Shown here: positions 5,730-31,042 of the stretch, one piece after another | Layout: each line of letters opens with the position of its first letter | How positions within the stretch are numbered: the stretch's first letter is position 1 | Source: an uncultured Bacteroidales bacterium | GTDB lineage: Bacteria; Bacteroidota; Bacteroidia; Bacteroidales; Paludibacteraceae | Length of the DNA stretch: 32,379 bases | Reading direction: 5' to 3' | NCBI GenBank assembly: GCA_946405045.1 | Contig: CAMJFV010000001.1 | Coordinates: forward strand, 1 to 32,379 | Translations under genes and position numbers: made by a program | Notes under the pieces: generated by a model | The model's input: only the letters and a program-made list of their open reading frames with translations | What the model was told of the DNA's origin: nothing | Database searches by the model: none

Positions 5730-6743
5730 TTATTTCAGTCTTCCTTCGGACGCTGCCACAAGCTGCGGATATGCAATTTCCATCAGTTCTTTGAACTGCG
5801 GATGCGGAGCGCCAGTCGTTCCATGCATTCTCAGATTCAGTTTGTGCTGCCACTGAGATTCGAACGAAGCATTCCAGATGTCAGCTTTGATATCATGCGG
5901 AAGTCTTCCACGAGCAGCCTGCGCAGAAATGCCATGCTTAACGAACCACATGTAGGATTCTTCGTCAGCCTTGGTATCCTTCAGCCATCTCTCGTATGCT
6001 TCCGGATTATTGCGGATCTCCGCCATCGGTTCGATGATCGTGAGCTCTCCACCGAACTTCTCGACATCGTATTTGCAGTATCTTGTCGACTCCATTGCGA
6101 ATGTTTCATCATTACGATGTCTTACCAGTTCATGTGTAACACCGCGATTTGTTGTGAACATTACGATGTGCGGGATAATGTCAACCAGATATCTGTCAAA
6201 GTATCCAGATGCTCTGTAATCGGCGATCAGTTCTTCTTTTGTGAAGAACATGAATGGATTTTTTACGTCATCGGCATTCATGTGGTCTGTATCGATCACA
6301 TCCGGTTCAAACTTCGCATGAAGCTTGTCATAAAGATCTTTATAGACCTCGGGATACTTCTGAGCCAAACACCAGATGAGATCCATGAATCCATCATAGT
6401 AATCCATGTCGATCATCCATTCACCGTCGAGCCATTCCTTGTACCAGTCGTAGAATGCCCGGAAGTTACCAACGGCATAATTGCCGACCATATGGATGAA
6501 ATGCGGTCTTGTAGCCTGGAAGAATTCGAGAAAATCGATATCAGTAATCTTCATGTAAAGATAACCGAATTCGATCATCGCGTCGTGACCAGATTTTACC
6601 AGAGATGCAACAAACTTTGCTGCAGAATCTTCTGTGATTTTGTTTTCAGACTTGTAACAAGTCCGTCCCGCTTTCTCGATTACCTGGTACTGAGTCATGC
6701 CTGTGGTGTCCAACAGGTATGCTGCTTGCTTAATGATTTTCAT
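5730..6743 (-). CDS. thyX: flavin-dependent thymidylate synthase ThyX-like, with a large internal insertion (337 aa)
   Basis: The ThyX signature is present as VRHRNDETFAMESTRY, together with the N-terminal AGRTCYKSE and C-terminal AARGRLPHD blocks. ATG at 6743 is 9 nt after AGGAGG. The track start at 6761 places that AGGAGG at codons 2-3 (ATG AGG AGG), so 6743 is preferred. Confidence 0.85.
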   Translation of the reverse strand: MKIIKQAAYLLDTTGMTQYQVIEKAGRTCYKSENKITEDSAAKFVASLVKSGHDAMIEFGYLYMKITDIDFLEFFQATRPHFIHMVGNYAVGNFRAFYDWYKEWLDGEWMIDMDYYDGFMDLIWCLAQKYPEVYKDLYDKLHAKFEPDVIDTDHMNADDVKNPFMFFTKEELIADYRASGYFDRYLVDIIPHIVMFTTNRGVTHELVRHRNDETFAMESTRYCKYDVEKFGGELTIIEPMAEIRNNPEAYERWLKDTKADEESYMWFVKHGISAQAARGRLPHDIKADIWNASFESQWQHKLNLRMHGTTGAPHPQFKELMEIAYPQLVAASEGRLK

Positions 6744-6744
6744 A

Positions 6745-6981
6745 TCAATCGTCCTCCTCATATTCTGATTCCAGATGACTCAGGAATTCAGATTCTTCCT
6801 GGTCAAGCCATTTTGCGATACCTTCGACACACTTCTTCGAAGAAATGGATCTGTTGGGGACTGTGCAGCTTGCCCCATCCTCACCATAGTAAGCACAGTT
6901 CCTGCAATCAACATGATTGATGAACATTGCCAATTGCTCAGTAGGCATCGCATGAAGTGCCGCGCGATTTGTGCGTTTCAT
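6745..6981 (-). CDS. small Cys-rich protein (78 aa)
   Basis: ATGA overlap with the upstream stop at 6978-6981. Cys pattern HVDCRNCAYYGEDGASCTVPNRSISSKKC. Confidence 0.6.
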   Translation of the reverse strand: MKRTNRAALHAMPTEQLAMFINHVDCRNCAYYGEDGASCTVPNRSISSKKCVEGIAKWLDQEESEFLSHLESEYEEDD

Positions 6982-8909: not shown

Positions 8910-9177
8910 TATGGACCTCCTTTCGACATTCGTCATCACCGATATCATTTTTCATCGGTGGTATTGGATGTGGTATTTCTATCAGCGGTTTGCATATGTT
9001 ATCTTTAATAAGCTTTTCGACAAATTCATGAATTCTTTGTAAAAGAACCAATCTAGAATTTAAGTCCGAATCATTTGTGACTGGAATTTCATCCATTTGT
9101 GATTTTATGTCACATAGAGCCTTTAATGTATTAATGTAATCATCGTGTTCATCATGTTTTGCAGATGTCAAATCCAT
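8884..9177 (-). CDS. hypothetical protein (97 aa)
   Basis: ATG at 9177 is preceded by AAAGGAGA. Confidence 0.6.
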   Translation of the reverse strand: MDLTSAKHDEHDDYINTLKALCDIKSQMDEIPVTNDSDLNSRLVLLQRIHEFVEKLIKDNICKPLIEIPHPIPPMKNDIGDDECRKEVHNDTRDQKG

Positions 9178-9535
9178 AAAATGTCACATCTCCTTTTGGC
9201 GATATGCCGATTCTGGCTTCGGTTGCCACATCTGGATGTTGTGCAACATCAACATGTGCCTGTACAGGATATCCCCAATTCTCACCACCAGGCAGTCTGT
9301 CGGAAGGATGATCGATTTCACCGCGCCATTTTCCGTCGTTGATTAATTTATCACGATGCTTTTCAAAGTCAGCAACGGCAGCTGATATAAATTCCGGAGA
9401 ATAGTATCGACCATTCCGGTTCTTATATCTGATTTTTATAACTTTCTTGCGAATAAAGCTTTTATATTCGTAGCCATGGATGAGACCATGTCTTTTCGCA
9501 AGTCTGCTAAGCTTTTTACGTTTCTTCCAGTTCAT
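9152..9535 (-). CDS. hypothetical protein, paralog family B (basic N-terminal module) member (127 aa)
   Basis: ATGA overlap at 9532-9535, with GGAGGTGA 6 nt upstream. N-terminus MNWKKRKKLSRLAKRHGLIHGYEYKSF matches the family B module. Confidence 0.75.
   Translation of the reverse strand: MNWKKRKKLSRLAKRHGLIHGYEYKSFIRKKVIKIRYKNRNGRYYSPEFISAAVADFEKHRDKLINDGKWRGEIDHPSDRLPGGENWGYPVQAHVDVAQHPDVATEARIGISPKGDVTFYGFDICKT
9509..9535 (-). repeat. 27-nt perfect direct repeat, copy 1 (family B leader MNWKKRKKL)
   Basis: aagctttttacgtttcttccagttcat is identical to 9850-9876. The flanking bases differ on both sides. Confidence 0.9.
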
Positions 9536-9876
9536 TCGTCGTCACCTCCGATATCTACTTTACCAGCTAGCTGCGGTCTATAGAATTCGTCGACTGTACA
9601 CCGGATCTGAGCCCTTTTCAGTTTCGCCCGACGCAAGCGTTTGTACCTCTTTACGTTGTATGCCCATGGTGGCATCTTCAAATCATCGTCGCGCACAGGA
9701 CGAACACAATACTGACATGAATTGATCAGAGCGGACGCTGATCCGCCGTAATAACAGATCCAGTCAAAGCATTTACACTGGACATAGATTTTGTACAGAT
9801 GCGGCCGTTTCGCAATTGTCCCTCGGAGTGGCTTCTTAGCTAACTTCCGAAGCTTTTTACGTTTCTTCCAGTTCAT
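9532..9876 (-). CDS. hypothetical protein, paralog family B member, Cys-rich variant (114 aa)
   Basis: Start chosen at 9876 (MNWKKRKKLRKLAK) by paralogy, with AGAGGA 8 nt upstream. Contains CKCFDWIC...CQYC. Confidence 0.7.
   Translation of the reverse strand: MNWKKRKKLRKLAKKPLRGTIAKRPHLYKIYVQCKCFDWICYYGGSASALINSCQYCVRPVRDDDLKMPPWAYNVKRYKRLRRAKLKRAQIRCTVDEFYRPQLAGKVDIGGDDE
9850..9876 (-). repeat. 27-nt perfect direct repeat, copy 2 (family B leader MNWKKRKKL)
   Basis: Identical to 9509-9535. A diverged third version lies at about 13514-13541. Confidence 0.9.
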
Positions 9877-10426
9877 CTTCATCATCCTCTGTATCGTCAT
9901 CATCGTCATCCGGCAGACTTGAAATGAGATCATCGAGCTTTTCCATCATACTCATAATCATCTGATGAAAATCTTTTTTGAAATAGATGTCTGAATCCGG
10001 CGGCAGAATGTTCCGAAGGCACTTTGATACGGCATCACCAAAGTATGTAACCCCTTCGAGCATTTCACCAGCTAGCGGATCTTTTCCGCTTGAGTCTACC
10101 GAAACCATATTATCTTTGATTCTGATGAACATCGAGACATCTGGTATCAGTTTCGGAAATGCGATGTGTATCGTGTGAGTTGAACGAAAGATGATGATAA
10201 TCGGTTTATCATGATCTTCAATATGATTTTTCGTACAGATCATAGCACCTTGTACGAACGACTCACCAGTGTCCGATTTAATGGCAATCTCCCCTTCATT
10301 AAAAGTAGAGACATCAACGACGCATTCGTCAAGATACTCTTTGGGAACACAATACATGCGCAAACATTGCAGCACATTGTAAAAGATCATCTGAGACAGA
10401 CATTCATCCGAGATTCTATATTTCAT
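9857..10426 (-). CDS. hypothetical protein with poly-acidic C-terminal tail (189 aa)
   Basis: ATG is preceded by CAGGAGGTAAAAGA. C-terminus is LPDDDDDDTEDDEDELEET. Confidence 0.75.
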   Translation of the reverse strand: MKYRISDECLSQMIFYNVLQCLRMYCVPKEYLDECVVDVSTFNEGEIAIKSDTGESFVQGAMICTKNHIEDHDKPIIIIFRSTHTIHIAFPKLIPDVSMFIRIKDNMVSVDSSGKDPLAGEMLEGVTYFGDAVSKCLRNILPPDSDIYFKKDFHQMIMSMMEKLDDLISSLPDDDDDDTEDDEDELEET

Positions 10427-11775: not shown

Positions 11776-12411
11776 TCATATGTTGGATTTTTCATCAGAT
11801 GGATCCAGAATCTGTGCACCGATGTTAACATTAAATGAGACACCATTTCTGTTTCCGTTCTGACTATATTGAACTCTGTATTGATGACCGGGTTTCCAAT
11901 GTAACCATTCGATATTAAGTGTGTCATGGTTATTGGGATCATATAACCCCACTTCTTGACAGAGTTCTTTGATATACTTTTCATCTACAGCTCTTTCAAG
12001 ATTCGTCTGGAAACGTTCATCTTCAGAACGTCTCGGATGCTCATCGTATTTTAACACAGTCCGCTCCAAGATGTCAGCAATTTTACCAGCTTTATAATCT
12101 AATAGTGCCATTTCTTCATCCGGTGTTCTGAAGGTGTATGCAGTGAGACCGTTCTCACACAGATTACAAGGAATCCATAAATCATTCATATAATTATCGT
12201 CTCTTTTAAAAGAAACATAGAATCCATCTTTTGTATGAATATCATCTGCCTTTTTGACATTAGTGACTAGCGCCCAGTATTGTTTGTTTGGAGAGAGTTT
12301 CATTCTTTTGAAGTCAATGTGATACTTTGTACATTGATCAGCATCTCGAAATATCAACACAACAAAGTGTACATATTTGAGATCTTCCAATGTATGCACT
12401 TCCTTAAACAT
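11776..12411 (-). CDS. hypothetical protein (211 aa)
   Basis: ATG at 12411 is preceded by ACAAGGAGGACAATC. Confidence 0.8.
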   Translation of the reverse strand: MFKEVHTLEDLKYVHFVVLIFRDADQCTKYHIDFKRMKLSPNKQYWALVTNVKKADDIHTKDGFYVSFKRDDNYMNDLWIPCNLCENGLTAYTFRTPDEEMALLDYKAGKIADILERTVLKYDEHPRRSEDERFQTNLERAVDEKYIKELCQEVGLYDPNNHDTLNIEWLHWKPGHQYRVQYSQNGNRNGVSFNVNIGAQILDPSDEKSNI

Positions 12412-12550
12412 GATTGTCCTCCTTGTTGATTCTTCTCACCTTGACAATTTCCGGTGTTCTATAGATCGTTCCTGATTTACAATGATCAGTCATTCGGATA
12501 GTGACCACTGTATCCCCAATTGTGTAATCAAACGTGGTAGGCTTTTCCAT
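12404..12550 (-). CDS. small ORF not in the supplied track (48 aa, MEKPTTFDYTIGDTVVTIRMTDHCKSGTIYRTPEIVKVRRINKEDNHV)
   Basis: Hand translation of the only sizeable gap in the left half of the window. ATG at 12550 overlaps the upstream TAA by 1 nt (TAATG) and lies 8 nt after GGAGGA. Its stop overlaps the next gene's start (ATGTTTAA). Confidence 0.45.
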   Translation of the reverse strand: MEKPTTFDYTIGDTVVTIRMTDHCKSGTIYRTPEIVKVRRINKEDNHV

Positions 12551-12918
12551 TATTCAAATCCTCCATTGTGTTTGACGATAATATTTGTTGGTTTGTCGAT
12601 TTTGATTGATTGAGATGTGGATTCGTCATTTGTAAATTGAACGATCATCCCATCCTGGTGTTCAAGTTCGTCAACGTTCTTCATCACTTTTGCATACCAC
12701 TCTTCCTGAGTCATACAATACTCGGGAAATCCTGCTTTACAAAACATTTGATTCATTCTGGGAAGAACTTCTGACCAATGAATCAAACAGTTCTTGAGTG
12801 CATGATCGAATGCGGCGTAATGAACACAAAACCTCACCGAACGTTTGTATTCATAATAATGCGTGAATCCATAATGGTGTGCGATTCTGCGCTGTTTCTT
12901 ACGTTTCCGCCAATGCAT
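12550..12918 (-). CDS. hypothetical protein, paralog family B member (122 aa)
   Basis: The upstream TGA is followed directly by the ATG. N-terminus is MHWRKRKKQRRIAHHYGFTHYYEYKR. Confidence 0.75.
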   Translation of the reverse strand: MHWRKRKKQRRIAHHYGFTHYYEYKRSVRFCVHYAAFDHALKNCLIHWSEVLPRMNQMFCKAGFPEYCMTQEEWYAKVMKNVDELEHQDGMIVQFTNDESTSQSIKIDKPTNIIVKHNGGFE

Positions 12919-13362
12919 TCAATCTACCTCTATTCCCATTGCTTCACATGCAGACGATGCCGCCTTCTTACGGTTATTCATATAGGCATGCCATTCGTTG
13001 AGATACTGCTCAACCTTAGATGCAAACTCTGGAGTCGATTCCGATAATTCCGTAAAAGGAATCTTGATCTCAGGATTGTCTGTTGGTGGCGGAACCACTT
13101 GCGTGCCAGGATATACACCTCGCAAAAGTGTTACATTCACCGGCCACGATTTAAAGCGGTTCGTAGTGAAAGGTGATGTCACGATGTAAATCATATTTCG
13201 CTGAAAACCTTTCATGTTGGCTGTCTCCAGCCTCCAAGCTTTCACGTATTCAACACCGTGTTTCGCTGCTGCGAGTTCCCATACACGTTGCCACCAGCGA
13301 TAATCTTTATAATGGAAATGTCCATCACGTTTCCAAAGTTTTTTCTTCTGTCGTGCGTTCAT
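12919..13362 (-). CDS. hypothetical protein, paralog family B member (147 aa)
   Basis: ATGA overlap at 13359-13362, with AAAGGAGTGA upstream. N-terminus is MNARQKKKLWKRDGHFHYKDYRWWQR. Confidence 0.75.
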   Translation of the reverse strand: MNARQKKKLWKRDGHFHYKDYRWWQRVWELAAAKHGVEYVKAWRLETANMKGFQRNMIYIVTSPFTTNRFKSWPVNVTLLRGVYPGTQVVPPPTDNPEIKIPFTELSESTPEFASKVEQYLNEWHAYMNNRKKAASSACEAMGIEVD

Positions 13363-13541
13363 GATTTGTCACTCCTTTTACCGATCAATACTCTCCAAGC
13401 TTCGCTATGTTTCGCTATGCAATATGCCATATATAGATCGAGATGACATATCCCATAAATTACACGTCTCCATTCATAATAATGGGATTTTCCATGTGAA
13501 TGGGCAATCTTACGAAGCTTCTTTCGTTTTCTCCAGTTCAT
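13359..13541 (-). CDS. hypothetical protein, short paralog family B member (60 aa)
   Basis: Start set at 13541 (MNWRKRKKLRKIAHSHGKSHYYEWRR) by paralogy. It lies 4 nt after the upstream TGA. The track ORF start at 13592 would overlap the upstream gene by 47 nt. Confidence 0.6.
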   Translation of the reverse strand: MNWRKRKKLRKIAHSHGKSHYYEWRRVIYGICHLDLYMAYCIAKHSEAWRVLIGKRSDKS

Positions 13542-13545
13542 CTGA

Positions 13546-13899
13546 TCAACCGTCCTCTCCTCCATTATTTTTTCTGAGATCGAACACGGCACTGTTCATA
13601 TGTTCGATTGATTCACTTTCAGTCACGATATCATCATATCTACCGAAACAAGAACCGACGCAATTTTCCAATTCCGGCATCGGATAGCGTCTGTATGTCC
13701 TGTTGAAAATCTTTGTCGGAGGTTTCGTGAATAAAATAGTTTTTGCACTATTAAACATATACTGTTTAAAGGCATAGGGACCGTCGTGATTAACGACAGA
13801 TCCAAAGATACTGTACAGAATCTTCACCCGCAATTTATAATCGCGATAATGAAAGAATCCTGCACGATTCTCAAGCTTCTTCTTTTGACGCTTGTTCAT
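13546..13899 (-). CDS. hypothetical protein, paralog family B member (117 aa)
   Basis: ATG is preceded by TGGAGGTAAAG. N-terminus is MNKRQKKKLENRAGFFHYRDYKLRVK. Confidence 0.75.
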   Translation of the reverse strand: MNKRQKKKLENRAGFFHYRDYKLRVKILYSIFGSVVNHDGPYAFKQYMFNSAKTILFTKPPTKIFNRTYRRYPMPELENCVGSCFGRYDDIVTESESIEHMNSAVFDLRKNNGGEDG

Positions 13900-18352: not shown

Positions 18353-18366
18353 TCATGAAGAAAAAA

Positions 18367-18393
18367 GAATCGCGGGGTAATCCCCCGCGATTC
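18367..18393 (-). terminator. intrinsic terminator
   Basis: 11-bp stem gaatcgcgggg/ccccgcgattc with a 5-nt loop, 5 nt after the stop at 18399. In gene sense it is followed by TTTTTT (18361-18366). Confidence 0.85.
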
Positions 18394-18398
18394 CCATA

Positions 18399-19628: not shown

Positions 19629-20357
19629 TTATTTTGATTTCCGATTCACCAAAGACTCAAAGTCAATTGTGAGGGAGTGGGTGTCCATCATCATCTTGAT
19701 TGCCTTCATTTTGATATACAGATAATCCTGGAACGGACGACGATCAACAATATATGTGATGGATGGAGAGACCGACATGTTTGATTTTTTGTAATATCGG
19801 GTTCCTCCATCATCCTCGTCTTCATATGTAGGAGGATCCCATATCGGTAAAGCTCTGTCAACGAGAATTTTTCTGACTTGCATTAAAATCTGTCCAAGAC
19901 GGTTATCACCTGTAAGCATGACTGTCTCGCTGTCGTTGACCGGGACTTTCGTTGGAATAGCGCCCCAGTACTTGTCACCCCATGTATTTCCTTCGACCAG
20001 TCGCATTCCAGATGTCTCGATCAGCTGTCGTGTCAGAAGACTGTTCTGAGAGAACTTCTGATACACAACATACCACATGACGTCGAATTTGATTTCTTCC
20101 CAGTCTGAACGAAGCTTGACCTTACGACCCGCAGCCTTTGCTTCTTTCGGTCCCATCTTAGCAAACTTTGCACGGATCTTTGGATCTGTGGTCTTGTAGG
20201 ACTGGAACATCGCTTCAGCGGATGTGAACTCGTTTCCTTCATAATCCCGAATTTTACACTGGTGAAAATTCGAAAGGAAAGCGTATTCATCTCTGAAGCG
20301 ATTTACGCATCCCCGTGAGTTGCTTAACAGCTCCTCAATCTTCTTGGTGTCATCCAT
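19629..20357 (-). CDS. NADAR (YbiA/DUF1768-like) domain protein with an extra C-terminal region of about 80 aa (242 aa)
   Basis: ATG at 20357 is 7 nt after AAGGAGGAA. The blocks FLSNF, TSAEAMFQSYK, PKEAKAAGRKVKLRSDWEEIK, QKFSQN..L...L..T, LVEGNTWGDKYWG follow the YbiA/NADAR pattern as I recall it. Double stop TAATAA. Confidence 0.85.
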   Translation of the reverse strand: MDDTKKIEELLSNSRGCVNRFRDEYAFLSNFHQCKIRDYEGNEFTSAEAMFQSYKTTDPKIRAKFAKMGPKEAKAAGRKVKLRSDWEEIKFDVMWYVVYQKFSQNSLLTRQLIETSGMRLVEGNTWGDKYWGAIPTKVPVNDSETVMLTGDNRLGQILMQVRKILVDRALPIWDPPTYEDEDDGGTRYYKKSNMSVSPSITYIVDRRPFQDYLYIKMKAIKMMMDTHSLTIDFESLVNRKSK

Positions 20358-20370
20358 GACAAATTCCTCC

Positions 20371-20598
20371 TTAAGATTTATTAGCAATCAAACGTATGAG
20401 TTCGATTATTGCCCATGATACAATGATAACAATCAACGCGATTGTTCCGATGATTAGAATCCATTTCAGGATCTTATCACGCTTCACGTTCTTTATACGT
20501 TCTTCTTCAACTTCATGTTCAAGCTTTTCACGTATTTCACGTTTCTTGTCGTCTTCAGGTTCTTTTTCCCAGGGTGGGATGTAACGATTTTCATTCAT
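20371..20598 (-). CDS. small tail-anchored membrane protein (75 aa)
   Basis: ATG at 20598 is preceded by AAGAGGATAAGAAAA and overlaps the upstream stop. The N-terminal half is charged. C-terminal helix ILKWILIIGTIALIVIIVSWAII. Confidence 0.55.
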   Translation of the reverse strand: MNENRYIPPWEKEPEDDKKREIREKLEHEVEEERIKNVKRDKILKWILIIGTIALIVIIVSWAIIELIRLIANKS

Positions 20599-21655
20599 TT
20601 TTCTTATCCTCTTTATTGATTTGCGATTCATATTCAGCCAGCTGATCATGTGTGTCCATACCATATTTGTCTTTGATATATGAATCTAATAGAGAAACCG
20701 GAGCGACTGCTTCAACCTGTGTATCCATGACATCGTCAACGGTTAACTGTAAATCATCTTCATCAACAGTTTCGGTTAATTTGAATGTCATATTCGGATC
20801 AGATCGATTGGTATTGATAATACCACGATATGTCTCCATATCTTTTGAAGCAGCTTCGATGATGAACCGACGAGGATGGTCACATTCCTGTGATGTGATA
20901 ACCCGTAATTCTTCCGGATCATGAACCTCAACAGTTTCGTATTCAAGTGCAATTGGATTCGGCTTTGTGAAGACTTTGAAGTTATCGTCACAGAAAAAGA
21001 ACACCCGTGGCTCGTCCTCGCCGTATTTCCAACGCAACCATGGTCCAGTGTAGTATACACCATTTCCGAAATCTGTATATCCATGATAATGACCGAACAC
21101 ACATAATTTCGAAATACTACCGAGCTGCTCCACAGAATGTATGATCTCATAATTAGCTGCTTTACACGGATTCTTGGTTTGTGATGCCATCGGTCCATGT
21201 CCAACAATCAGATCATATTTCTTGTTGAGTAACTCGTCATAGTTATTTGTGTATTCCTGTGGGAGGAACAATGCTTTGATACCGCTTCCGATGATTGTTC
21301 CTTCACAAGCTTTGTTGATCAACCACACTTTTGCATTCGGAAGTTTGTCTAATGCCTGTGTGAAGATCTCATACTGAGACTGATCATGCGAATCTGTACC
21401 ATGAATGAAATACACCGGGACATGTTCAAAACCATTCTTTCCACAGAAATTGCACACAAGATTCACCATAAAGAACATTGCGAATTTAGCATCTTCCACA
21501 GAAAGTCTACCATCAAACAAATCTCCACATACAAAAATTGCATGACACGGTTCTTTGCACTCTTTGATGGTTTCAAGAAACATGTGTAAAGAATCCATGA
21601 ATTGTGATTTGGGTAATTTTACACCTATATGAATATCCGCCATGAATGCATACAT
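20591..21655 (-). CDS. Mre11/SbcD-like calcineurin-fold nuclease (354 aa)
   Basis: Ordered metallophosphoesterase motifs: ADIHIG (DxH), VCGDLFDG (GDxxD), IHGTDSHD (GNHD-like), VGHGP, FGHYHG. Confidence 0.75.
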   Translation of the reverse strand: MYAFMADIHIGVKLPKSQFMDSLHMFLETIKECKEPCHAIFVCGDLFDGRLSVEDAKFAMFFMVNLVCNFCGKNGFEHVPVYFIHGTDSHDQSQYEIFTQALDKLPNAKVWLINKACEGTIIGSGIKALFLPQEYTNNYDELLNKKYDLIVGHGPMASQTKNPCKAANYEIIHSVEQLGSISKLCVFGHYHGYTDFGNGVYYTGPWLRWKYGEDEPRVFFFCDDNFKVFTKPNPIALEYETVEVHDPEELRVITSQECDHPRRFIIEAASKDMETYRGIINTNRSDPNMTFKLTETVDEDDLQLTVDDVMDTQVEAVAPVSLLDSYIKDKYGMDTHDQLAEYESQINKEDKKNE

Positions 21656-21661
21656 GAATCA

Positions 21662-22066
21662 TTACCCCCAATAATATTCAGCACTTGCGGATAGATCTCC
21701 TTTGTATGAATCCGCAAGTTTTTGTCTCGGAGGTTCATGCTGTTCATTCATACCATCTTCATACATTCTGCGAATTTTATACTGAACACAAACTTCATGT
21801 TCAACTCTGCATCCTGCCGATTTATCCCAACCTCTGGCAAAAACAACCAGATTCGCATCATACATCTTTGTGATAGAATCACCCAACATCGCAATGCGCC
21901 CGCGGCCAACAATATCTTCTGATTTCGTGAATGAATCGATAAATTCCAATGTATCATCACGAAACCAATGTTTTGTCATTTCGATGAGCTGTTCCCGACG
22001 CTTCAGAATCTCTTTATCTGTCAGACCAGCCATCGGTTGAGAAATAAATACTTTTAGTTTCATCAT
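21662..22066 (-). CDS. DUF4406 / nucleoside 2-deoxyribosyltransferase-like protein (134 aa)
   Basis: N-terminal KVFISQPMAGLTDKE and C-terminal ANLVVFARGWDKSAGCRVEHEV match the DUF4406 pattern (YI.GPM.G ... GW..S.G...E) as I recall it. Confidence 0.65.
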   Translation of the reverse strand: MMKLKVFISQPMAGLTDKEILKRREQLIEMTKHWFRDDTLEFIDSFTKSEDIVGRGRIAMLGDSITKMYDANLVVFARGWDKSAGCRVEHEVCVQYKIRRMYEDGMNEQHEPPRQKLADSYKGDLSASAEYYWG

Positions 22067-22419
22067 ATCATCCCTTCATATACGCCATTGTAGTGTAAAA
22101 ACCACAATGCGTTCTTTTGTGTTCTATTGGCTTTTCCGGTGTAACCTTCCGACCACACAGATATACATCCAGTCTTATCACATAACCATTCCACTGGATC
22201 CATTCCGCACTTATCATGGGAATATTCTTCGAAGATTTCATCCATTGATTTTCCGTAAATCGAAGCAAGCTTCATCATATGTGATGGGACTGCATACTCA
22301 ACAGTTCCGTCAGATCTGATAATCACTTCGAGATAGTTAACAAATGAATTCTTGTGTACACGAACATCAAATCGTGAATTCAAAATCTTCTGCTGTTCTT
22401 CCATTGTCGGTAATTCCAT
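22063..22419 (-). CDS. hypothetical protein (118 aa)
   Basis: ATG is preceded by GAGGTGATATT. It is the first gene after the 22440-22463 hairpin. Confidence 0.7.
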   Translation of the reverse strand: MELPTMEEQQKILNSRFDVRVHKNSFVNYLEVIIRSDGTVEYAVPSHMMKLASIYGKSMDEIFEEYSHDKCGMDPVEWLCDKTGCISVWSEGYTGKANRTQKNALWFLHYNGVYEGMI

Positions 22420-22439
22420 AATATCACCTCAAAACATTG

Positions 22440-22463
22440 TATAGCGGGGTTTCCCCCGCTATA
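22440..22463 (-). terminator. hairpin terminator after the spoIIID-like gene
   Basis: 10-bp stem tatagcgggg/ccccgctata with a 4-nt loop, 4 nt after the stop. In gene sense it is followed by CAATGTTTTG. Confidence 0.65.
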
Positions 22464-22467
22464 CTAT

Positions 22468-22746
22468 TTATTTCGACTCTTCATACTTTTTCTTGGTAGC
22501 AAGACCACCACGAATATGTTTCACTGACCAGTTATAGTCAAGCTGTTTCAACAGCTTCTTGTACTTACGTTTTCCACCACCTTTTACAAATGGAAAATAT
22601 TCGTGGATGAAAACATGTAAGGTTGATTTTGACAGTCCATATACATGTGCTGCATGACGAATCGTGCATTTTGTCTGAATGATAAATTCACATGCATTGA
22701 TGAAACTATCCATGTATTTGTTGATAACGCTGTACCGAGAGCTCAT
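22468..22746 (-). CDS. spoIIID: SpoIIID-like helix-turn-helix transcriptional regulator (92 aa)
   Basis: ATG is preceded by TAAGGAGTGATACAGA. FIIQTKCTIRHAAHVYGLSKSTLHVFIHEYFP and LDYNWSVKHIRGGLATKKKYEE parallel B. subtilis SpoIIID (YIVETKKTVRVIAKEFGVSKSTVHKDL... and LDYHKSIRHLRGGEATKLKYKK, from memory). The length is also the same, about 92 aa. Confidence 0.85.
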   Translation of the reverse strand: MSSRYSVINKYMDSFINACEFIIQTKCTIRHAAHVYGLSKSTLHVFIHEYFPFVKGGGKRKYKKLLKQLDYNWSVKHIRGGLATKKKYEESK

Positions 22747-22759
22747 TCTGTATCACTCC

Positions 22760-23446
22760 TTAGTCTGGATATGGATCTACATAACACTCTTGTTCGAATT
22801 TATCCGGACACACCTTGACGGTTTTTGAATATGCTGGCTGTGCTTTGATTACCATATTGAGATCGATTGGGGTCTTGCGTCCACCCACAGCAGCGACGTC
22901 GATCTGGTTCGTATAAGGGCACCAGTATGTTTTATATCCATGAATGTGTCCGTGAATATTCAAACGGTTATTGTTTTCTTGTGGCATGTGTGAGAATAAA
23001 ATATTATCGTATACGAATTTCGGAGTGATATACTTGAATCCGATTGAAGTATAGTATTCATCCGGATACAAGTCATTGTTGCCACGTACCAGAATCTTTG
23101 TTCCTTTCAATTGACCGATCACATCTGCGAGTTCTTTCTTACGTTCAACCTCTCCATCTGTCAAATCACCAAGATTGATAACCAGATCATCATCAGTTAC
23201 AATATCATTATATCTGTTGATGATTTGCTGGTAATCGGAACGCTGTTTCTTCTGTTTTGTTTTCTTGTCATACATCCAAAGATGCCAGTCTGTACACAAG
23301 TAAACCTTGTGACCTTTGTTCAGTGTTGAACGAATTAGTGCGGCAATCGGTGAAGATTCTTTTGTCTTTGACTCTTTAATCTCCTTACCAATTTCCTCTT
23401 CATGACGCCTGGAATACTCCATCATCACCTTGTCAAATTTGCTCAT
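22760..23446 (-). CDS. calcineurin-like metallophosphoesterase (228 aa)
   Basis: Motifs LCTDWH (DxH), NLGDLTDG (GDxxD), VRGNND (GNHD-like), HGHIHG. ATG is 7 nt after AAAGGAGAA. Confidence 0.8.
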   Translation of the reverse strand: MSKFDKVMMEYSRRHEEEIGKEIKESKTKESSPIAALIRSTLNKGHKVYLCTDWHLWMYDKKTKQKKQRSDYQQIINRYNDIVTDDDLVINLGDLTDGEVERKKELADVIGQLKGTKILVRGNNDLYPDEYYTSIGFKYITPKFVYDNILFSHMPQENNNRLNIHGHIHGYKTYWCPYTNQIDVAAVGGRKTPIDLNMVIKAQPAYSKTVKVCPDKFEQECYVDPYPD

Positions 23447-23460
23447 GCATATGTTCTCCT

Positions 23461-23503
23461 TTCCGAGATTAGTTATGAAATCGTTTTTCCACTAATCTCG
23501 GAA
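23461..23503 (-). promoter_or_regulatory. 13-bp perfect inverted repeat (5' UTR stem-loop or operator) abutting the RBS of the phosphoesterase gene
   Basis: ttccgagattagt (23461-23473) and actaatctcggaa (23491-23503) are separated by 17 nt. In gene sense the 3' arm ends in ...CTCGGAA and runs straight into AGGAGAA (RBS) and the ATG at 23446. Confidence 0.55.
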
Positions 23504-23514
23504 TAATGATATAT
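23504..23514 (-). promoter_or_regulatory. conserved intergenic motif ATATATCATTA, copy 2; candidate promoter element
   Basis: Exact 11-mer, 15 nt downstream of the terminator U-tract. It directly abuts the 13-bp inverted repeat and lies about 57 nt upstream of the ATG at 23446. Confidence 0.4.
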
Positions 23515-23529
23515 CGGTGTAAGAAAAAA

Positions 23530-23551
23530 CATGGGGGCATATGCCCCCATG
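23530..23551 (-). terminator. intrinsic terminator
   Basis: Perfect palindrome catgggggcatatgcccccatg (9-bp stem, 4-nt loop), 3 nt after the stop at 23555. In gene sense it is followed by TTTTTTCTT. Confidence 0.85.
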
Positions 23552-23554
23552 TAA

Positions 23555-24250
23555 TTATTTCCGTTCTTTCAATTCACTGATCCAGTCACGCCGATGCTGA
23601 AGTGTCCGGCGTACTTTTCTCCGCTCCGAAGGATCTTTGATTTGTTGCATGTGGCGATCTGCTGCAGCATCAAATAACCTGATATCAACTCCGCGAAGAG
23701 AAACCGTATTCATGATCGCAATCCGTTTATTAAACGGAACTCCGATCGCAACCAGCCAACGTTCAAAATTGTTCGGAAGGTCAGGTATAAACACATTACC
23801 CGCTGCGAGCCATGCAATCAGGAACATGTGATTCGGTATATCATCAATCTTTGTATTGGAATCATCCTCATTATTAGCAACAGGATGAGACGCAGCAACC
23901 TCAATCCACCCACCATTTTGTGCAATATAACCTTTTTCTTCGAGAGATGTCTCGGTCAGAAAATATCCGAGTATTTGTGTATGACCTCTGTCGCAGAGGA
24001 ATGTTGTTTGTGGATTAAAATCCGGATCAGTGTTTGCAATATATACACGACCACCGGCTGCATCACAAGCTTTCCACATTTCGTACACATACGATCTATC
24101 TTTTTCAACTTTTTCGAGAAAATCTGCATACAGCTGATCTCTCTCGGAAGGATTGAAAAGATAACCGTCAATTGTTGTAAAATCTCCTGTAAACGCGTTA
24201 TTGATTTTGACAGGAATTTTGATAACAATCCGGGTTCCTTTAGTTAGCAT
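23555..24250 (-). CDS. hypothetical protein (231 aa)
   Basis: ATG at 24250 is preceded by GAAAGGAGTAATTCTA. The gene is bracketed by hairpins at 24272-24291 and 23530-23551. Confidence 0.7.
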   Translation of the reverse strand: MLTKGTRIVIKIPVKINNAFTGDFTTIDGYLFNPSERDQLYADFLEKVEKDRSYVYEMWKACDAAGGRVYIANTDPDFNPQTTFLCDRGHTQILGYFLTETSLEEKGYIAQNGGWIEVAASHPVANNEDDSNTKIDDIPNHMFLIAWLAAGNVFIPDLPNNFERWLVAIGVPFNKRIAIMNTVSLRGVDIRLFDAAADRHMQQIKDPSERRKVRRTLQHRRDWISELKERK

Positions 24251-24271
24251 TAGAATTACTCCTTTCAAATA

Positions 24272-24291
24272 GACGGGGCCGAAGCCCCGTC
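24272..24291 (-). terminator. hairpin after ligA (UUCG tetraloop in gene sense)
   Basis: 8-bp stem gacggggc/gccccgtc with loop cgaa (UUCG on the transcript), 9 nt after the ligA stop. The U-tract is weak (TATTTG). Confidence 0.6.
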
Positions 24292-24300
24292 CCTCATAAC

Positions 24301-26199
24301 TTAAAATGGTTTGAACAGATTATCCGGAACTTCATCCGGTGTGTAGATAGGAATGTTCAGCTTCTTTGCTCTGGATACTTTATCGGACTGGAAGTTCTTG
24401 TCCTTTACGATCAATGCTTTCAAATCGTTTGTGAAACCACCGACCTCATAGCCGTTGTCAACAAGCTGTTTTTCAAGGTCCTTATCACGGAATCCTGTGA
24501 AGCATACGCGACCAGCATAAGCTCCCCAAGGAGTTGTTGGTTTCAGCTTCTCCGGAATCCAAGACATCAATGATTGAATCTCTTCTTTATTCCGAAGATA
24601 TCCGTCAAAGATCTTTTGAATTTTGATCTTGCCAACCGATGGAATGTAACCCGCATTCAGAATCATCTCGGGAAAACTTCCATCGATCATTGCATGAATA
24701 ATCGGTTCATCACCCAGAACACGAATAACTGCAGACCAGGTTTTTTCATCCGTATCATTGAACGGTAATGCTCCAAGGAATCTTGCAAGGGTTGCTTCAG
24801 ACAGAGCTTTGTCGACGGACTTCACCATGTTGTCATATGAGGTATATCCGAAACCTTCTGTTTGAGCAATGCAATCGTCCCATTTTCTTAGATCATATAG
24901 ATCTTCGATTTTAGTAACGAATTCATTGTCATACAACTTCGTCAGAACTCCTTCACCAAGTCCAACCATTCTCATCTTTTCAGCATGACGAATAATCGCA
25001 CCAAGTTTCAGTCCTTTACATTCAGGATTCTTACATCTGACAATGACGCCTGAATTGTAATCCAGAGCTGCACCACATATCGGACAATTTGTCGGCAGCG
25101 GTATTGGATAATCACCATCGTGATACGATTCCAGAAAATACGGTACGATGTTATACATGATTCGTATCGTATCACCATGTCGAAGTTCCATGGATCTGAC
25201 GCGATCGAGTGTTGACAACGTTGCATGATCAACTGATATTTTGTCGTCACAGAATTTTACTGCATCAAATATCGCGACCGGTGTGATACGTCCCTGTTTA
25301 CCAAACTGATATTCAATCGATCGAAGTGTCGTCTCTTTCACGTCATTCAGAATCTTGATTGCAACTTCAAGTTCCGGATCAACAAATATCGTAGATGGAT
25401 CGGTTGATGATTCGGAATTTATCGACGCAACAACACCATCAATCGAAAATGTCTGATCAAAGATTTTTGTCGTAGCGGATTCAGCCAATCGATCTTTGAT
25501 GAATGCTCCGATCGAATTGAAGTCGTCTGCAAACACATGTTCACAGATTTCATTCAACAGTTTCGGAATATACTGTTTGCCGTCAACGTATCCTCTCAAC
25601 GGCACCAATGTGATGAATTGTGCCATTTCAATATTTCTGGATGTGATTGTTGCAGACACAACATCACGTGGACGTTTATATGTGAGATTTAACGCATAAT
25701 GCAGAAACTGTTCATGAGACAAAATTGCCTCGAACTTCATTGCAGTTGTACCAGGTCGTGCAAATGATTTGACGACTTCCAAATGGTGTTGAAATACTTC
25801 TGTCACGTCAACAGATTCACCATTATCATAGTCACCTCTTGTGAAGAATCGACCGGTTGCGAAATCTAGTGCAACTGAGCATCCATCGAATTTCGGTTGC
25901 AATATGATTTTGCATTGATCAAGTGCAGGATGTGACTTCATGTTTGTGTCAAGCCATTTCTTATATGTCTTTTGACCAGGTCTCCAGGGTTCTGTCACAC
26001 CATAAGCCTTTGGTAAAGTTCCAACAATGTCATTTACATCAGCAGATTGTTTCTGTCGATTGAATGGTCGTGCGGACTCCCCACCATTCTCTTTCAAATA
26101 TTCCTCGAGTAATGTATCATACTCTTCATCAGAAATCAATGGATGACCCTGATCATACGCTTTGATATATTCATCGAGCTGTTCTTTTGTGATTGCCAT
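24301..26199 (-). CDS. ligA: NAD-dependent DNA ligase LigA (632 aa)
   Basis: Full LigA layout:
- Ia-like N-terminus YDQGHPLISDEEYDTLLEE
- adenylation lysine motif QPKFDGCSV (KxDG)
- Cys4 zinc finger CPICGA...CKNPEC
- C-terminal BRCT-like GRVCFTGFRDKDLEKQLVDNGYEV. Confidence 0.93.
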   Translation of the reverse strand: MAITKEQLDEYIKAYDQGHPLISDEEYDTLLEEYLKENGGESARPFNRQKQSADVNDIVGTLPKAYGVTEPWRPGQKTYKKWLDTNMKSHPALDQCKIILQPKFDGCSVALDFATGRFFTRGDYDNGESVDVTEVFQHHLEVVKSFARPGTTAMKFEAILSHEQFLHYALNLTYKRPRDVVSATITSRNIEMAQFITLVPLRGYVDGKQYIPKLLNEICEHVFADDFNSIGAFIKDRLAESATTKIFDQTFSIDGVVASINSESSTDPSTIFVDPELEVAIKILNDVKETTLRSIEYQFGKQGRITPVAIFDAVKFCDDKISVDHATLSTLDRVRSMELRHGDTIRIMYNIVPYFLESYHDGDYPIPLPTNCPICGAALDYNSGVIVRCKNPECKGLKLGAIIRHAEKMRMVGLGEGVLTKLYDNEFVTKIEDLYDLRKWDDCIAQTEGFGYTSYDNMVKSVDKALSEATLARFLGALPFNDTDEKTWSAVIRVLGDEPIIHAMIDGSFPEMILNAGYIPSVGKIKIQKIFDGYLRNKEEIQSLMSWIPEKLKPTTPWGAYAGRVCFTGFRDKDLEKQLVDNGYEVGGFTNDLKALIVKDKNFQSDKVSRAKKLNIPIYTPDEVPDNLFKPF

Positions 26200-28324: not shown

Positions 28325-31042
28325 TTATTTACGTTGAGACTTCTCGAATTGTTCAATTCGTTGAAGTTTCCGTTTTGCTTTAGCTAGCTGGTCTTGGGTT
28401 AACTTACCAGAAGCAATCTGTTGTTTCAGCTGTTCCTTAGCAAGTTGACGTTGTTTCGCTGCATTTGCATCAAGTTGTTTTTGACGTTTTTCGTATTGCT
28501 GTTGTGCATACTCACCACGTTTTTGATGTGCAAACAACATTTCATCTTCATCTCGAGCCTTTTCGATCAAATCAGGTTTTCCTCTAGCAACGCGATCTTT
28601 ATTTAAACGATCAACATTCCGTGAGTTCTCTTGTGCGCCTTTTCTTAATGAACGAAGCATTGTGTCGCCTTTGGCATATCTGTTATGCAATTCACTATAA
28701 GCATCCGCATCATATTCAACAGGATCCAAATCATGATCCCTGTTCTTAATTTTTTTCCAATCTTCATATGGCATAGCATCGATATGTGCTTTTGCTTCGT
28801 CACGTCGTCGCAAACCTTCCGAACCAGATTTCCATAACGGTTTATCACGTTCAAAATCATATACCTTATCCGTCATTTGAGAAGCGTGTCCTTCTTCATG
28901 TTTATATGTTGCATTTGAATAAGCCGGTTTCTTTTGGATATCTTTTGGTGTCATATTAATGCTGTCTGTATCCATTTGACCATATCGTTTCACTTTACCA
29001 TCAACGGTTGTTTGATATGCTGAATCATAATGTTGTGTTACGTCATGTGGATTTATTGTGAATGGTACACGTTTCTTTTGTCCAGGATTGTTTTTATCAT
29101 CAATATCCGTCAAAATAGTTTCTGTTTTCGGATCATAACCGTTTTCACGAAGGAATTTGTTCATACGGTTACGTTCCTTATTAGATCCAATTTTTCCAGC
29201 GGATATACGTTTACCAGGACGATTCGGATCTTCGATTGTGTTGGTTTTAGGATCATACTTATGTTTCTTCAAATATTCGTCATATGGGCCGTAAGCTGCT
29301 TCCTGAACAACTTCATCGTCATATGAATCCAACAGAATTCCGAATTCATTGATCGCTTCGTCATGTGCGTCCGGGTCATCGAATAATGCATTATGATATT
29401 CGGATACGTAGAACAAAGAATCTCCGAGTTGAACAAACCAGTCACACTCTTCACATTCACAATATTCTTCAATTATATCGGAATCATCGAGAGCATATTC
29501 AACGACCATGTCTTCGAACAAGTCATCATCGTCGGAATCATCGAGTGCGTATTCAACAACCATGTCTTCGAACGAATCTTCATACCAGTTGAACATCTCA
29601 TATATTGCATCATTCATCAAAATATCATCAGCAAGGTTCTCCATTGTATATTCCTCACTGAATACGATTCCAAACAATTCTGGGATCATTGCAACGAATT
29701 CAGCAACAGCAGCCTTCGTCCACGGAGCAGCTTTTTCGATTGCACGACAGAACTCACAACGCGCTTCATACTCACTCTTTGTCTTAGCAAGAATCTTGTT
29801 AAGTCTAGCCAATTGCTTATCGATATTAACAGAGTTTTTTCTTGCATCAAGACATCTCTGATATACAGTATCGACATACTGTATACGTTTCGATGGATCC
29901 ATTTGAAGAAGCTTTTCTTTTCGATTAGCGCTCAGAGTTGTATATGGATTCTGGAAACTGTTGACAACCTGCTCAACCGAATTTAAATTTGACATGATTT
30001 CTTTCATTGTACCAAATTTAATCGGAATACCATTTGCAGCAGCATACGACTTTATTTGCCGGATTTGTTTCACGATCTGCTGAGCCGCTGACGAAATTTT
30101 GTCAACCGCTGACCCAGACATGTTCATATATTTCGTAAGAGTTGCATCATCGATATCTCCATCATGAAGGTGCAGATATGTCTTCAGATCATTCAGAGCT
30201 TTGATATTTTTATCGAGGTTCTGTGCAGCTACAGTTTTTGCAGTATTTATGGTGCTCTCACGTAACATAGATGCCTGCATTCCGTATAGATGCATCAATG
30301 CTCTAGTATATACTGCAGCTCCATTCTTTCTTACGGCAGCAGCATCAGCTTCTAACTCAAACAAATATTTGTCATGAGCAGTATTCAGTTTCTTTCCAGC
30401 AGGAGAATTTACATAATCCTTGATCCAGTCTGTTGTGGCATTCAGACCGATATTAAGTTTATTATTCACAAGACCCATCTTACGTTGTATAGCCGATCCT
30501 ATAGATCGTGTTATTTTTCCACCAGGTAACTGGTATCCGGCCATATCAACAGCTTCGCCACTGCCACGCTTTGCCATTCTCTCTTGATGAGAATGTTGAA
30601 CTTCATGGTCGATCATTGCTTTGAACTCATCTCTACTGAGTCTTGTGAGAATGTTTTTTGGTACATTAATATTTCCACCATTTTCAGCAAGACCAAGCTT
30701 AGATTGTATATCACCGGTGGCTTTCATTGCAGGCAATGTCTTTGAAAGAATCTGTGAGTAAATCTTCTTGGCTCGAATCTTCAGATTGCTGTCGTTTTTG
30801 TCAATATGAGTTCCGACAGCGGTCCCCATCATACTCAAAATATTAACGACATCGTCTTCATTCATCAAGTTTATTTTGATCGGATATTTTTCTTTTGTCT
30901 CAGGATCTTCAACGATGATCGATTGTGACCATTTGTCATATCCGATCGCTTTCAGATTTCGTTTAGAGGTTCTATTCATTCGACCTCGTGCTGTCTCTTG
31001 ATAAAAAATACCGCCACCAAATCTTGCAGGTATGTCAGACAT
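28325..31042 (-). CDS. very large multidomain protein with two zincin-like HExxH...E-x-[ED]-A-D modules, acidic tandem repeat and basic coiled-coil tail (905 aa)
   Basis: ATG is preceded by TAAGGAGGGATATT.
- HEVQH (aa 146-150) with FELEADAAA (aa 228-236)
- HEEGH (aa 715-719, nt 28886-28900) with VEYDADAYS (aa 775-783)
- 18-aa tandem repeat at aa 491-526
- K/Q/R-rich C-terminus aa 840-905. Confidence 0.85.
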   Translation of the reverse strand: MSDIPARFGGGIFYQETARGRMNRTSKRNLKAIGYDKWSQSIIVEDPETKEKYPIKINLMNEDDVVNILSMMGTAVGTHIDKNDSNLKIRAKKIYSQILSKTLPAMKATGDIQSKLGLAENGGNINVPKNILTRLSRDEFKAMIDHEVQHSHQERMAKRGSGEAVDMAGYQLPGGKITRSIGSAIQRKMGLVNNKLNIGLNATTDWIKDYVNSPAGKKLNTAHDKYLFELEADAAAVRKNGAAVYTRALMHLYGMQASMLRESTINTAKTVAAQNLDKNIKALNDLKTYLHLHDGDIDDATLTKYMNMSGSAVDKISSAAQQIVKQIRQIKSYAAANGIPIKFGTMKEIMSNLNSVEQVVNSFQNPYTTLSANRKEKLLQMDPSKRIQYVDTVYQRCLDARKNSVNIDKQLARLNKILAKTKSEYEARCEFCRAIEKAAPWTKAAVAEFVAMIPELFGIVFSEEYTMENLADDILMNDAIYEMFNWYEDSFEDMVVEYALDDSDDDDLFEDMVVEYALDDSDIIEEYCECEECDWFVQLGDSLFYVSEYHNALFDDPDAHDEAINEFGILLDSYDDEVVQEAAYGPYDEYLKKHKYDPKTNTIEDPNRPGKRISAGKIGSNKERNRMNKFLRENGYDPKTETILTDIDDKNNPGQKKRVPFTINPHDVTQHYDSAYQTTVDGKVKRYGQMDTDSINMTPKDIQKKPAYSNATYKHEEGHASQMTDKVYDFERDKPLWKSGSEGLRRRDEAKAHIDAMPYEDWKKIKNRDHDLDPVEYDADAYSELHNRYAKGDTMLRSLRKGAQENSRNVDRLNKDRVARGKPDLIEKARDEDEMLFAHQKRGEYAQQQYEKRQKQLDANAAKQRQLAKEQLKQQIASGKLTQDQLAKAKRKLQRIEQFEKSQRK
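29465..29572 (-). repeat. in-frame 54-nt tandem duplication inside the 905-aa ORF
   Basis: Units 29519-29572 and 29465-29518 encode FEDMVVEYALDDSDDDDL and FEDMVVEYALDDSDIIEE. The first ~42 nt of the units differ at about 4 positions. Confidence 0.9.

Follow-up and report, generated by a model that had tools for sequence, protein, structure and literature searches.

In a 32,379-nucleotide stretch of DNA deposited for an uncultured Bacteroidales bacterium (assembly GCA_946405045.1, contig CAMJFV010000001.1, positions 1 to 32,379; hereafter the window), six small genes open with the same basic module of about 27 residues, to which C-terminal parts of differing sequence, here termed cargos, are attached. 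The module family is real and undescribed, belongs to no named family, and constitutes a multigene family of small basic proteins that is restricted to one group of uncultivated phages. Paralog families as such are a known kind of element in jumbo phages, whereas the family described here, which is held together by a shared N-terminal leader, is new. One of the cargos is the disabled N-terminal half of a prohead protease, and binding to nucleic acid or another polyanion is the function that we tentatively consider for the module.

A Basic N-Terminal Module Conserved at the Protein Level

All six open reading frames (ORFs; g13899, g13541, g13362, g12918, g9876, and g9535, Table 1) lie on the minus strand, which carries every gene of the window. 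Their translation returned the N-termini that the original prediction, made from the sequence alone, had reported for the first four, as well as the two further members that it had placed at 9152-9876. The module combines a basic first helix (M-N-x-R/K-K/Q-R/K-K-K-L...) with a Gly-containing turn and an aromatic second helix (H-Y-x-E/D-Y/W-K/R): The first helix carries a charge of +5 to +7, the net charge of the whole module amounts to +7 to +12 at an isoelectric point of 10.7-12, and five to eight of the residues at positions 13-27 are aromatic or His, except in g9876, which has a single one. Two subtypes can be distinguished, A in g13899 and g13362 (MNxRQKKKLxxRxGxFHYxDY) and B in g13541, g12918, and g9535 (MNWRKRKKLRKIAHxHGxxHYYEY) as well as in g9876, where the module is cut down to its first ~14 residues. 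A six-frame search with a regular expression and a hidden Markov model (HMM) of the module found no matches in the window besides these six ORF starts. For g13541 and g9876, whose longest ORFs open upstream at GTG 13592 and ATG 9933, respectively, the MN... start was assigned by analogy with all orthologues.

Pairwise Smith-Waterman scores were compared with those of 300 shuffles, separately for residues 1-30 and for residues 31 to the end. The N-terminal similarity is statistically supported, with z = 4-15 for most paralog pairs, and beyond residue 30 no pair reached significance except g12918/g9535 (z = 3.5). Because synonymous sites of the module are saturated between the window paralogs (proportion of synonymous differences, pS, 0.70-0.90 and above) while the proportion of non-synonymous differences (pN) stays at 0.09-0.30, the module peptide is under purifying selection and its conservation is one of protein rather than DNA. 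Within each family of orthologues, moreover, mean identity is higher for the module (0.64-0.90) than for the cargo (0.35-0.62).

A 32-residue module profile, scored on 1.84 billion representative proteins with a cut-off of E <= 1e-3, retrieved 41 clusters with protein lengths of 50-313 residues. Without exception it occupies the N-terminus, starting at residue 1 in 40 clusters and at residue 5 in the remaining one (P0060). All sources that were traced are metagenome contigs, those from long assemblies being jumbo-phage contigs of 257-276 kb, and the sample labels of some related contigs point to human-gut studies. In line with the original prediction, no named family accommodates the module: It has no match in Pfam, NCBIfam, PADLOC, or the PDB sequences and no significant match in PHROG. 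The whole proteins likewise have no match in Pfam, NCBIfam, or PADLOC, and their sole PHROG match is phrog_207 on the cargo of g9535.

In the AlphaFold2 models of both g13362 and g9535, the module is predicted to form a helical hairpin. The former model (18-sequence alignment; predicted local distance difference test, pLDDT, 63; predicted template modeling score, pTM, 0.42) comprises helices at residues 3-12, 18-35, and 37-49, followed by a β-hairpin and a long helix; the latter (69-sequence alignment; pLDDT 67, pTM 0.27) comprises helices at 3-15, 21-33, and 47-66, a disordered stretch, and a terminal β-hairpin, with a pLDDT of about 85 over the first 20 residues. We also considered a Spo0E-like helical-hairpin phosphatase (PF09388), which was matched below threshold by three of 37 members (best E = 0.056, against a 23-bit cut-off). 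The SQELD motif is absent from helix 2, and we attribute the similarity, which is one of helix-Gly-helix layout, to chance.

One Cargo Derives from a Prohead Protease

The cargo of g9535 can be traced to a head maturation protease by several comparisons. Residues 27-79 match phrog_207 'head maturation protease' (E = 9.8e-7), as do five of 13 proteins related to g9535. A search with the alignment of the g9535 family returned first the family itself, then the S80 protein P0120 (E = 5.8e-7), and then about 1000 PF03420 (T4 gp21-type) proteases at 29-32 bits. P0120, a protein of 280 residues encoded on a 261-kb contig and surrounded by large structural genes (loci L010 and L011), passes the Pfam Peptidase_S80 threshold (24.5 vs 23.4 bits). 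With the module removed, the g9535 family aligned with the protease profile over 133 columns (hhalign, 98.3%, E = 2e-14); BLASTP of g9535 against P0120 gave E = 4e-9, identity to P0120 reached 63% over 43 residues in the g9535 relative P0105, and the protease HMM aligned to g9535 at HMM positions 25-76 (E = 1.6e-9). Pfam S80 and S77 stayed below the gathering score for every scanned member of the module family, and a search of the PDB sequences with the g9535 family profile missed T4 gp21.

The alignment extends from the strand preceding KNRNGRxY via a helix and the motif GE[IL][DN]HP to a β-hairpin. G72, E73, H76, and P77 are invariant in the g9535 family and align with GELNHP of the proteases P0120, P0121, and P0131, which places His76 at the position of the catalytic histidine; its counterpart in T4 gp21 is His85. 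In the hhalign alignment, g9535 stops (...FYGFDICKT) just before the catalytic Ser motif (GVSSRG / PSFSVRVFG), and both the Ser and the Asp regions of the triad are absent; the longer relatives P0061 and P0099 read GFGLTRK and have no aligned Ser. By this alignment, g9535 is a truncated protease paralog with a new N-terminus, and a catalytically dead one, since a protein devoid of the Ser nucleophile and the downstream Asp region should be unable to act as a protease. The full-length P0120 type carries no basic module, which means that the module has been fused to foreign sequence at least once. Moreover, g9535 is located outside the head-morphogenesis block and has NADAR, ThyX, and phosphoesterase genes as neighbors. 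In three related proteins (P0109, P0116, and P0118), a second, degenerate 'NRxxRxY' unit (…FNKPNRMKRQYDP…) stands between the His motif and a GGEAI…IDLR motif, which indicates a partial internal duplication within the protease-derived cargo.

Giant phages are known to encode a truncated paralog of the S80 prohead protease that has been termed a 'cryptic protease' (SPN3US gp117, 201phi2-1 gp206, and PhiPA3 gp143; PMC5694885). Like g9535, these proteins are truncated and presumably inactive, and their genes lie apart from those for head assembly in a jumbo-phage genome. The two cases retain opposite halves of the active site: In gp117, the Ser and Asp of the triad can be aligned and the His cannot, whereas g9535 keeps the His and lacks the Ser/Asp region. 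According to the SPN3US record, gp117 (MKLQTEVKEIPAQ...) has no basic N-terminal module and stands outside any tandem family sharing a leader.

Turnover of the Cargos

The original prediction had described the C-terminal parts as unrelated. This holds for g13362 and g9876, which stand alone, but not for the pairs g9535/g13899 and g13541/g12918, nor for a C-terminal tail that is shared between cargo classes. The g13899-type proteins P0043 and P0050 align with a g9535-type protein of 167 residues from locus L001 (E = 8e-4 over 81 residues and E = 6e-5, respectively) through the motifs NRxxRxYDY and GG.AI.[YF]..S.VIDLR, and through these relatives g13899 is distantly related to g9535. Its direct resemblance to the protease is weak and inconsistent (44%, E = 2e-4 in one hhalign run; E = 0.12-5 with the protease HMM), and a profile built from long g13899-type proteins only gave no protease match; by eye and in weak BLAST high-scoring segment pairs, 'PSMSMRMVG' resembles 'PSFSVRVFG' of the protease, and the tail 'SSACEAMG' resembles 'VVCEAF'. 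The cargos of g13541 and g12918 are linked by P0034, a g12918-type protein, which reveals common residues at positions 29-44 and similarity up to about residue 45. The 60-residue g13541, first described as little more than the module, continues beyond it for about 28 conserved residues, its orthologues P0020-P0032 being conserved through residue ~55. Other relatives of g12918 are P0040, P0052, L006:10624-11043, and L007:10624-10992. With the module removed, hhalign found no relation of the g12918 and g13541 cargos to the other cargo classes or the protease, and it related the g13362 cargo to others through the tail only.

This tail of 13 residues, ASSACEAMGMEVD, is common to g13362-type proteins (19 homologues were aligned) and some g13899-type relatives. 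As ASSACEAMG[MI]EVD it is kept among proteins that are otherwise 41% identical, and it also occurs on another cargo class (P0019, P0038, and P0063). Since the DNA of the tail is 97% identical to that of locus L002 (9472-9510) while the gene cores are 55% identical, recombination is suggested as the route of its exchange. Within the tail, ACE and GME fit the [S/A/G]-x-E cleavage motif of phiKZ-type proteases, and YACEQ and VVCEAF occur in the related protease P0120, within the C-terminal region that is the site of autocleavage in SPN3US gp245. Chimeras between cargo classes are frequent among the relatives: They join the N-terminal part of g13541 (P0116) or a g12918-like part (P0111 and P0114) to the C-terminal part of g9535, or the N-terminal part of g13899 to the C-terminal part of g13362 (P0038), and P0063 consists of module plus tail in 53 residues. 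The bridges between g9535 and g13899 and between g13541 and g12918, together with the shared tail, therefore show that part of the family represents diverged or recombined duplicates, and the cargos turn over by duplication, internal deletion, and recombination among tandem copies.

The g9876 protein is a singleton in the BLAST clustering of cargos and has orthologues in L006 and L014; its cargo is basic with the Cys pattern CxC..C...CxxC. Zinc-ribbon-like patterns (CxC…CxxC or CPxC…CPxC) were noticed by eye in this cargo as well as in L002:9512-9826 and L001:10416-11213, genes that lack the module and follow a g13362-type gene.

The expanded family that had been proposed from the window was borne out, and copy number and cargo differ among the related loci, which hold between one and six copies in permuted order. 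Six members occur both in the window and in L006 (one of the latter detected by HMM alone), five in L007, which lacks the g9876 type, and four in L016, with the order g13362, g12918, g13541. L001 has three members (one with a new cargo), L002 and L014 have two each, L017/L018 have two with new cargos at 36% GC, and L015 has a single member in a different context, beside NrdD. The 2-kb contig L013, which has three members, carries module genes of 105, 190, and 82 residues back to back with three different cargos (L013:631-1778). At 30% GC, it shows that the tandem layout of a leader with variable tails recurs in a compositionally distinct lineage. Intact module ORFs persist across lineages of 30-43% GC. 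The module HMM found no member in the structural loci L010 and L011.

Gene Arrangement and Genomic Context

The positions of the module genes, their parts, and the neighboring features are compiled in Table 1.

Table 1. Features of the 32,379-nucleotide window discussed in the text.
Feature	Position	Strand	Description
g13899	13546..13899	(-)	117 residues; subtype A module MNKRQKKKLENRAGFFHYRDYKLRVK; cargo motifs 'PPTKIFNRTYRRY' and 'NSAVFDLR'; module HMM 50.4 bits
g13541	13359..13541	(-)	60 residues; subtype B module MNWRKRKKLRKIAHSHGKSHYYEWRR plus conserved helical stretch of ~28 residues
g13362	12919..13362	(-)	147 residues; subtype A module, conserved core to residue ~88, variable insert, conserved C-terminal tail
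g13362 C-terminal tail ASSACEAMGIEVD	12922..12960	(-)	Also on some g13899-type relatives
g12918	12550..12918	(-)	122 residues; subtype B module MHWRKRKKQRRIAHHYGFTHYYEYKR plus own cargo class
g9876	9532..9876	(-)	114 residues; retains only the first ~14 module residues MNWKKRKKLRKLAK; module HMM 37.9 bits
g9535	9152..9535	(-)	127 residues; subtype B module fused to truncated prohead-protease-like domain
Protease-derived part of g9535 (residues ~31-127)	9155..9445	(-)	Strand, KNRNGRYY, helix, GEIDHP, β-hairpin
GEIDHP motif of g9535 (residues 72-77)	9305..9322	(-)	Aligns with GELNHP of S77/S80 proteases
Module-coding 27 codons (DNA alignment)	13819-13899 (g13899), 13461-13541, 13282-13362, 12838-12918, 9796-9876, 9455-9535	(-)	
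ThyX gene	5730-6761	(-)	Further downstream
189-residue gene	9857-10426	(-)	Ends DELEET*; stop within module codons of g9876
211-residue gene	11776-12411	(-)	Start MFK...
ORF ending ...EDNHV*	12404-12550	(-)	Overlaps start of the 211-residue gene
Overlap of 193-residue gene with g13899	13871-13899	(-)	Upstream gene ends inside KKKLE codons
Intrinsic-terminator-like hairpin	18365-18395	(-)	Strong; 13-bp stem, 8 GC pairs, T-run
Sigma-70-like promoter	18425-18398		10/12 match
NADAR-domain protein	19629-20387	(-)	Within block 19629-26199
Metallophosphoesterases	20591-21655 and 22760-23446	(-)	Same block
SpoIIID-like protein	22468-22746	(-)	92 residues; PHROG 11726 'sporulation stage III protein D', E = 1.6e-13
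NAD-dependent-ligase-like protein	24301-26199	(-)	Same block
905-residue ORF	28325-31042	(-)	No Pfam, PHROG, or phage-database match
Two adjacent 52-nt copies	29478-29583		88% identical, 54-nt spacing; inside the 905-residue ORF

The junctions of the tandem genes are as originally given: A 4-nt gap separates g13899 from g13541, an ATGA overlap joins g13541 to g13362, and TGAATG joins g13362 to g12918. Similar overlaps exist between the module genes and their upstream neighbors. The ending of the 189-residue gene is the +1 frame of MNWKKRK, and its poly-acidic C-terminus (…PDDDDDDTEDDEDELEET) is encoded immediately upstream of, and overlapping with, the polybasic g9876. The 'EET*' ending (GAA GAA ACG TAA) corresponds to the +1-frame reading of AAG AAA CGT AAR (KKRK), and ...EET-ending proteins in these phages therefore probably precede a type B module gene. 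Upstream genes ending within module codons were also seen for P0031, P0034, P0051, P0099, L001:9534-9875, and L002:8394-9245. The '...EDNHV*' ending, which recurs in P0024, P0052, and P0055, reflects the overlap with the start of the 211-residue gene.

The module genes lie within a long, tightly overlapping operon, and their neighbors are non-structural. Since no further minus-strand terminator was found from 18365 down to 7000, a region of ~11 kb including all six module genes may form one transcript. The NADAR, phosphoesterase, ligase, and ThyX genes could represent a jumbo-phage gene set related to ADP-ribose/NAD. A spore-forming Firmicute is the probable host: The SpoIIID-like protein, whose L006 orthologue carries Pfam SpoIIID, hints at such a host and at a possible interference with sporulation. 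Megablast of the locus and tblastn of the 905-residue neighbor and one family member gave no match in 50,697 phage records, and an exact look-up of the g13362 protein returned no contig that encodes it. The longest syntenic relative is L006, a metagenome contig of 262,555 bp, and in L007 an upstream gene has a faint multisubunit RNA-polymerase match. By the protease, the cultured phages that come closest are three Staphylococcus jumbo phages of ~260 kb (PALS_2, DC4, and SA1) as well as Yersinia phiR1-37 (27-28% identity), and the best ligase matches fall into the same Staphylococcus group (24%).

Function of the Module and Alternative Explanations

A nucleic-acid or polyanion-binding anchor is the function that we favor for the module, as a possible and so far tentative reading. 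The module would be the functional constant, a small polycationic anchor that attaches to a polyanion, with DNA or RNA as the most plausible partner, or else to a common receptor. In binding nucleic acid, the basic helix would touch the backbone, while the face formed by His, Tyr, and Trp would either stack on bases or lie against the cargo, and a changing set of short C-terminal pieces would thereby be brought to one place. Since the genes are embedded in an overlapping operon among genes of nucleotide metabolism (NADAR, phosphoesterases, ThyX, and NAD-ligase), we consider it more likely that the proteins act inside the infected cell than that they are structural. The arginine-rich motifs (ARMs) of lambda N and P22 N and the N-terminal arm of lambda cI resemble the module in being very short, strongly basic N-terminal helices that are followed by divergent sequence, a form in which contact with nucleic acid is plausible. 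This likeness is one of composition only, with no sequence or profile similarity; the module is Lys/Arg-mixed with a second, aromatic helix, and the window yielded no repeated hairpin of the boxB type.

Several points weigh against binding of nucleic acid. The basic helix is not Arg-rich like classical RNA-binding ARMs, and its lack of matches in Pfam, NCBIfam, and the PDB sequences connects it to no known DNA- or RNA-binding family. The window, which covers ~12% of the genome, has 121 perfect 6-bp hairpins on its coding strand; no stem or loop recurs among them above shuffles, and besides the module DNA the window contains no repeat family. Foldseek searches with both models against PDB and BFVD returned nothing with E below 0.1, the overall confidence of these models being low. 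Furthermore, the obligatory position at residue 1 and the near-invariance of Asn2 would suit an address tag better than a binding helix, and the protease-derived cargo hints at the capsid interior, not the cytoplasm. In a further reading, which we consider distinctly unlikely, the module would be a portable, uncleaved address tag for a phage-encoded receptor (prohead core, portal, or another compartment built by the phage) and would load a fast-evolving arsenal of small proteins, decoy protease fragments included, into the giant capsid for co-injection with the DNA; as such it would be a basic functional analogue, in jumbo phages, of the T4 capsid-targeting sequence (CTS). Neither the early region nor the counter-defence arsenal of the original prediction received support from the tests that were run, PADLOC included. 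An import signal for a phage nucleus was set aside in view of the nearest cultured relatives by protease: To our knowledge, the Staphylococcus jumbo phages and Yersinia phiR1-37 are not nucleus-forming chimalliviruses.

The T4 CTS, a non-polybasic leader of 10-20 residues, has at its end an L/I-x-E site that is cut by gp21. As a short conserved N-terminal leader on the dissimilar, small, often basic internal proteins (IPs) IPI, IPII, and IPIII and on Alt, it resembles the module, and the polymorphic IP locus of the T-even phages likewise differs in gene content between related phages. The module could be seen, as the original prediction mainly proposed, as a capsid-targeting or packaging leader that directs small proteins into the prohead core, to be packaged with the DNA and possibly injected, with the protease-derived cargo being present since it still docks in that core. 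The strictly N-terminal position with a near-invariant M-N, the variable tandem locus, the origin of the g9535 cargo from a core component, and the two [S/A/G]-x-E tripeptides of the tail, a motif cut by the S80 proteases of phiKZ and SPN3US, would all fit such a leader. Support also comes from giant phages, in which head-protein paralog families are expanded, variable in number, and equipped with long targeting propeptides (PMC5694885, where the role of the CTS in T4 is summarized as well). However, a conserved tripeptide of the form L/I-x-E or S/A/G-x-E is missing in every class from the end of the module and its vicinity, where the E/D column that follows H-Y/G is variable (E, D, K, H, Q, or N after H-Y-x, with H/Y at P3/P2), although these T4 and phiKZ-like motifs may not reflect the specificity of the protease in this lineage. 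The tail tripeptides are confounded by the Shine-Dalgarno sequence encoded there; the module is a predicted helical hairpin of +7 to +12 without a conserved Glu site, unlike the short, non-basic CTS; and the long operon to which the genes belong is non-structural and lies at a distance from the block that, in relatives, holds the protease and structural genes. The SPN3US families A and B and the phiKZ inner-body proteins are, like the module family, jumbo-phage multigene families of varying member number, but they consist of larger virion proteins with long cleaved propeptides and whole-length homology, whereas homology among the module proteins is largely confined to the first ~27 residues. 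Taken together, we regard capsid targeting as rather unlikely.

It also appears unlikely, if worth considering, that the genes are birth-and-death duplicates of a single ancestor, module plus truncated protease comparable to the 'cryptic protease' of SPN3US, whose N-terminus is simply the slowest-evolving part while the cargos decay or recombine; a modular logic of tag and payload would then not exist. The residual homology of g13899 to g9535, of g13541 to g12918, and of g13362 to g13899-type relatives argues for such an ancestor, as do the many truncated or internally deleted members (P0035, P0063, P0064, P0059, and P0060), chimera breakpoints that fall inside the cargos and not at the module boundary (P0116, P0111, and P0038), and the published truncated protease paralogs of giant phages (PMC5694885). 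Yet three cargo classes without a trace of homology are left unexplained, hhalign in the absence of the module linking neither g12918 nor g13541 to the others or to the protease and g13362 by its tail only; the module-less protease calls for at least one fusion to foreign sequence; and decaying pseudogenes would not be expected to keep their ORFs intact, and the module strongly conserved, in lineages that range from 30 to 43% GC. Finally, the conserved unit could be an RNA- or DNA-level cassette, that is, a duplicated translation-initiation or coupling segment, with A-rich codons behind the ATG that overlap the stop of the preceding gene, or a recombination hot spot instead of a functional peptide. 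Upstream genes that end inside module codons (the 189- and 193-residue genes), type B DNA copies that are 80-83% identical over 40 nt (repeat family D1), and chimeras between paralogs would be compatible with a cassette. It is nevertheless largely refuted by the pS/pN pattern, in which amino acids are kept while synonymous sites are saturated; in addition, conservation spans 20-27 codons to Gly, His, Tyr, and Trp far beyond the initiation region, and in a DNA alignment the untranslated sequence upstream of the module genes is conserved only as Shine-Dalgarno. We therefore hold a cassette to be highly improbable.

Significance

In nucleus-forming phages, conserved signal sequences on the proteins that are imported have eluded bioinformatic searches (PMC11087766), and for the head proteins of jumbo phages only long, poorly defined propeptides are known (PMC5694885). 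If the module were indeed a tag that addresses or anchors proteins, jumbo phages would for the first time have a described signal of this simple linear kind, and its size would make it directly testable with peptides and reporter fusions; should the address-tag reading be true, the module would moreover offer a usable tag for packaging foreign proteins. If the genes were only decaying duplicates, the module would still be a marker for a clade of ~260 kb uncultivated jumbo phages, some of them from human-gut-labelled samples. Whatever the function, the family provides a clear example of gene birth in phages, in which the N-terminal half of an essential capsid protease was copied, disabled, re-headed, and shuffled with its neighbors.

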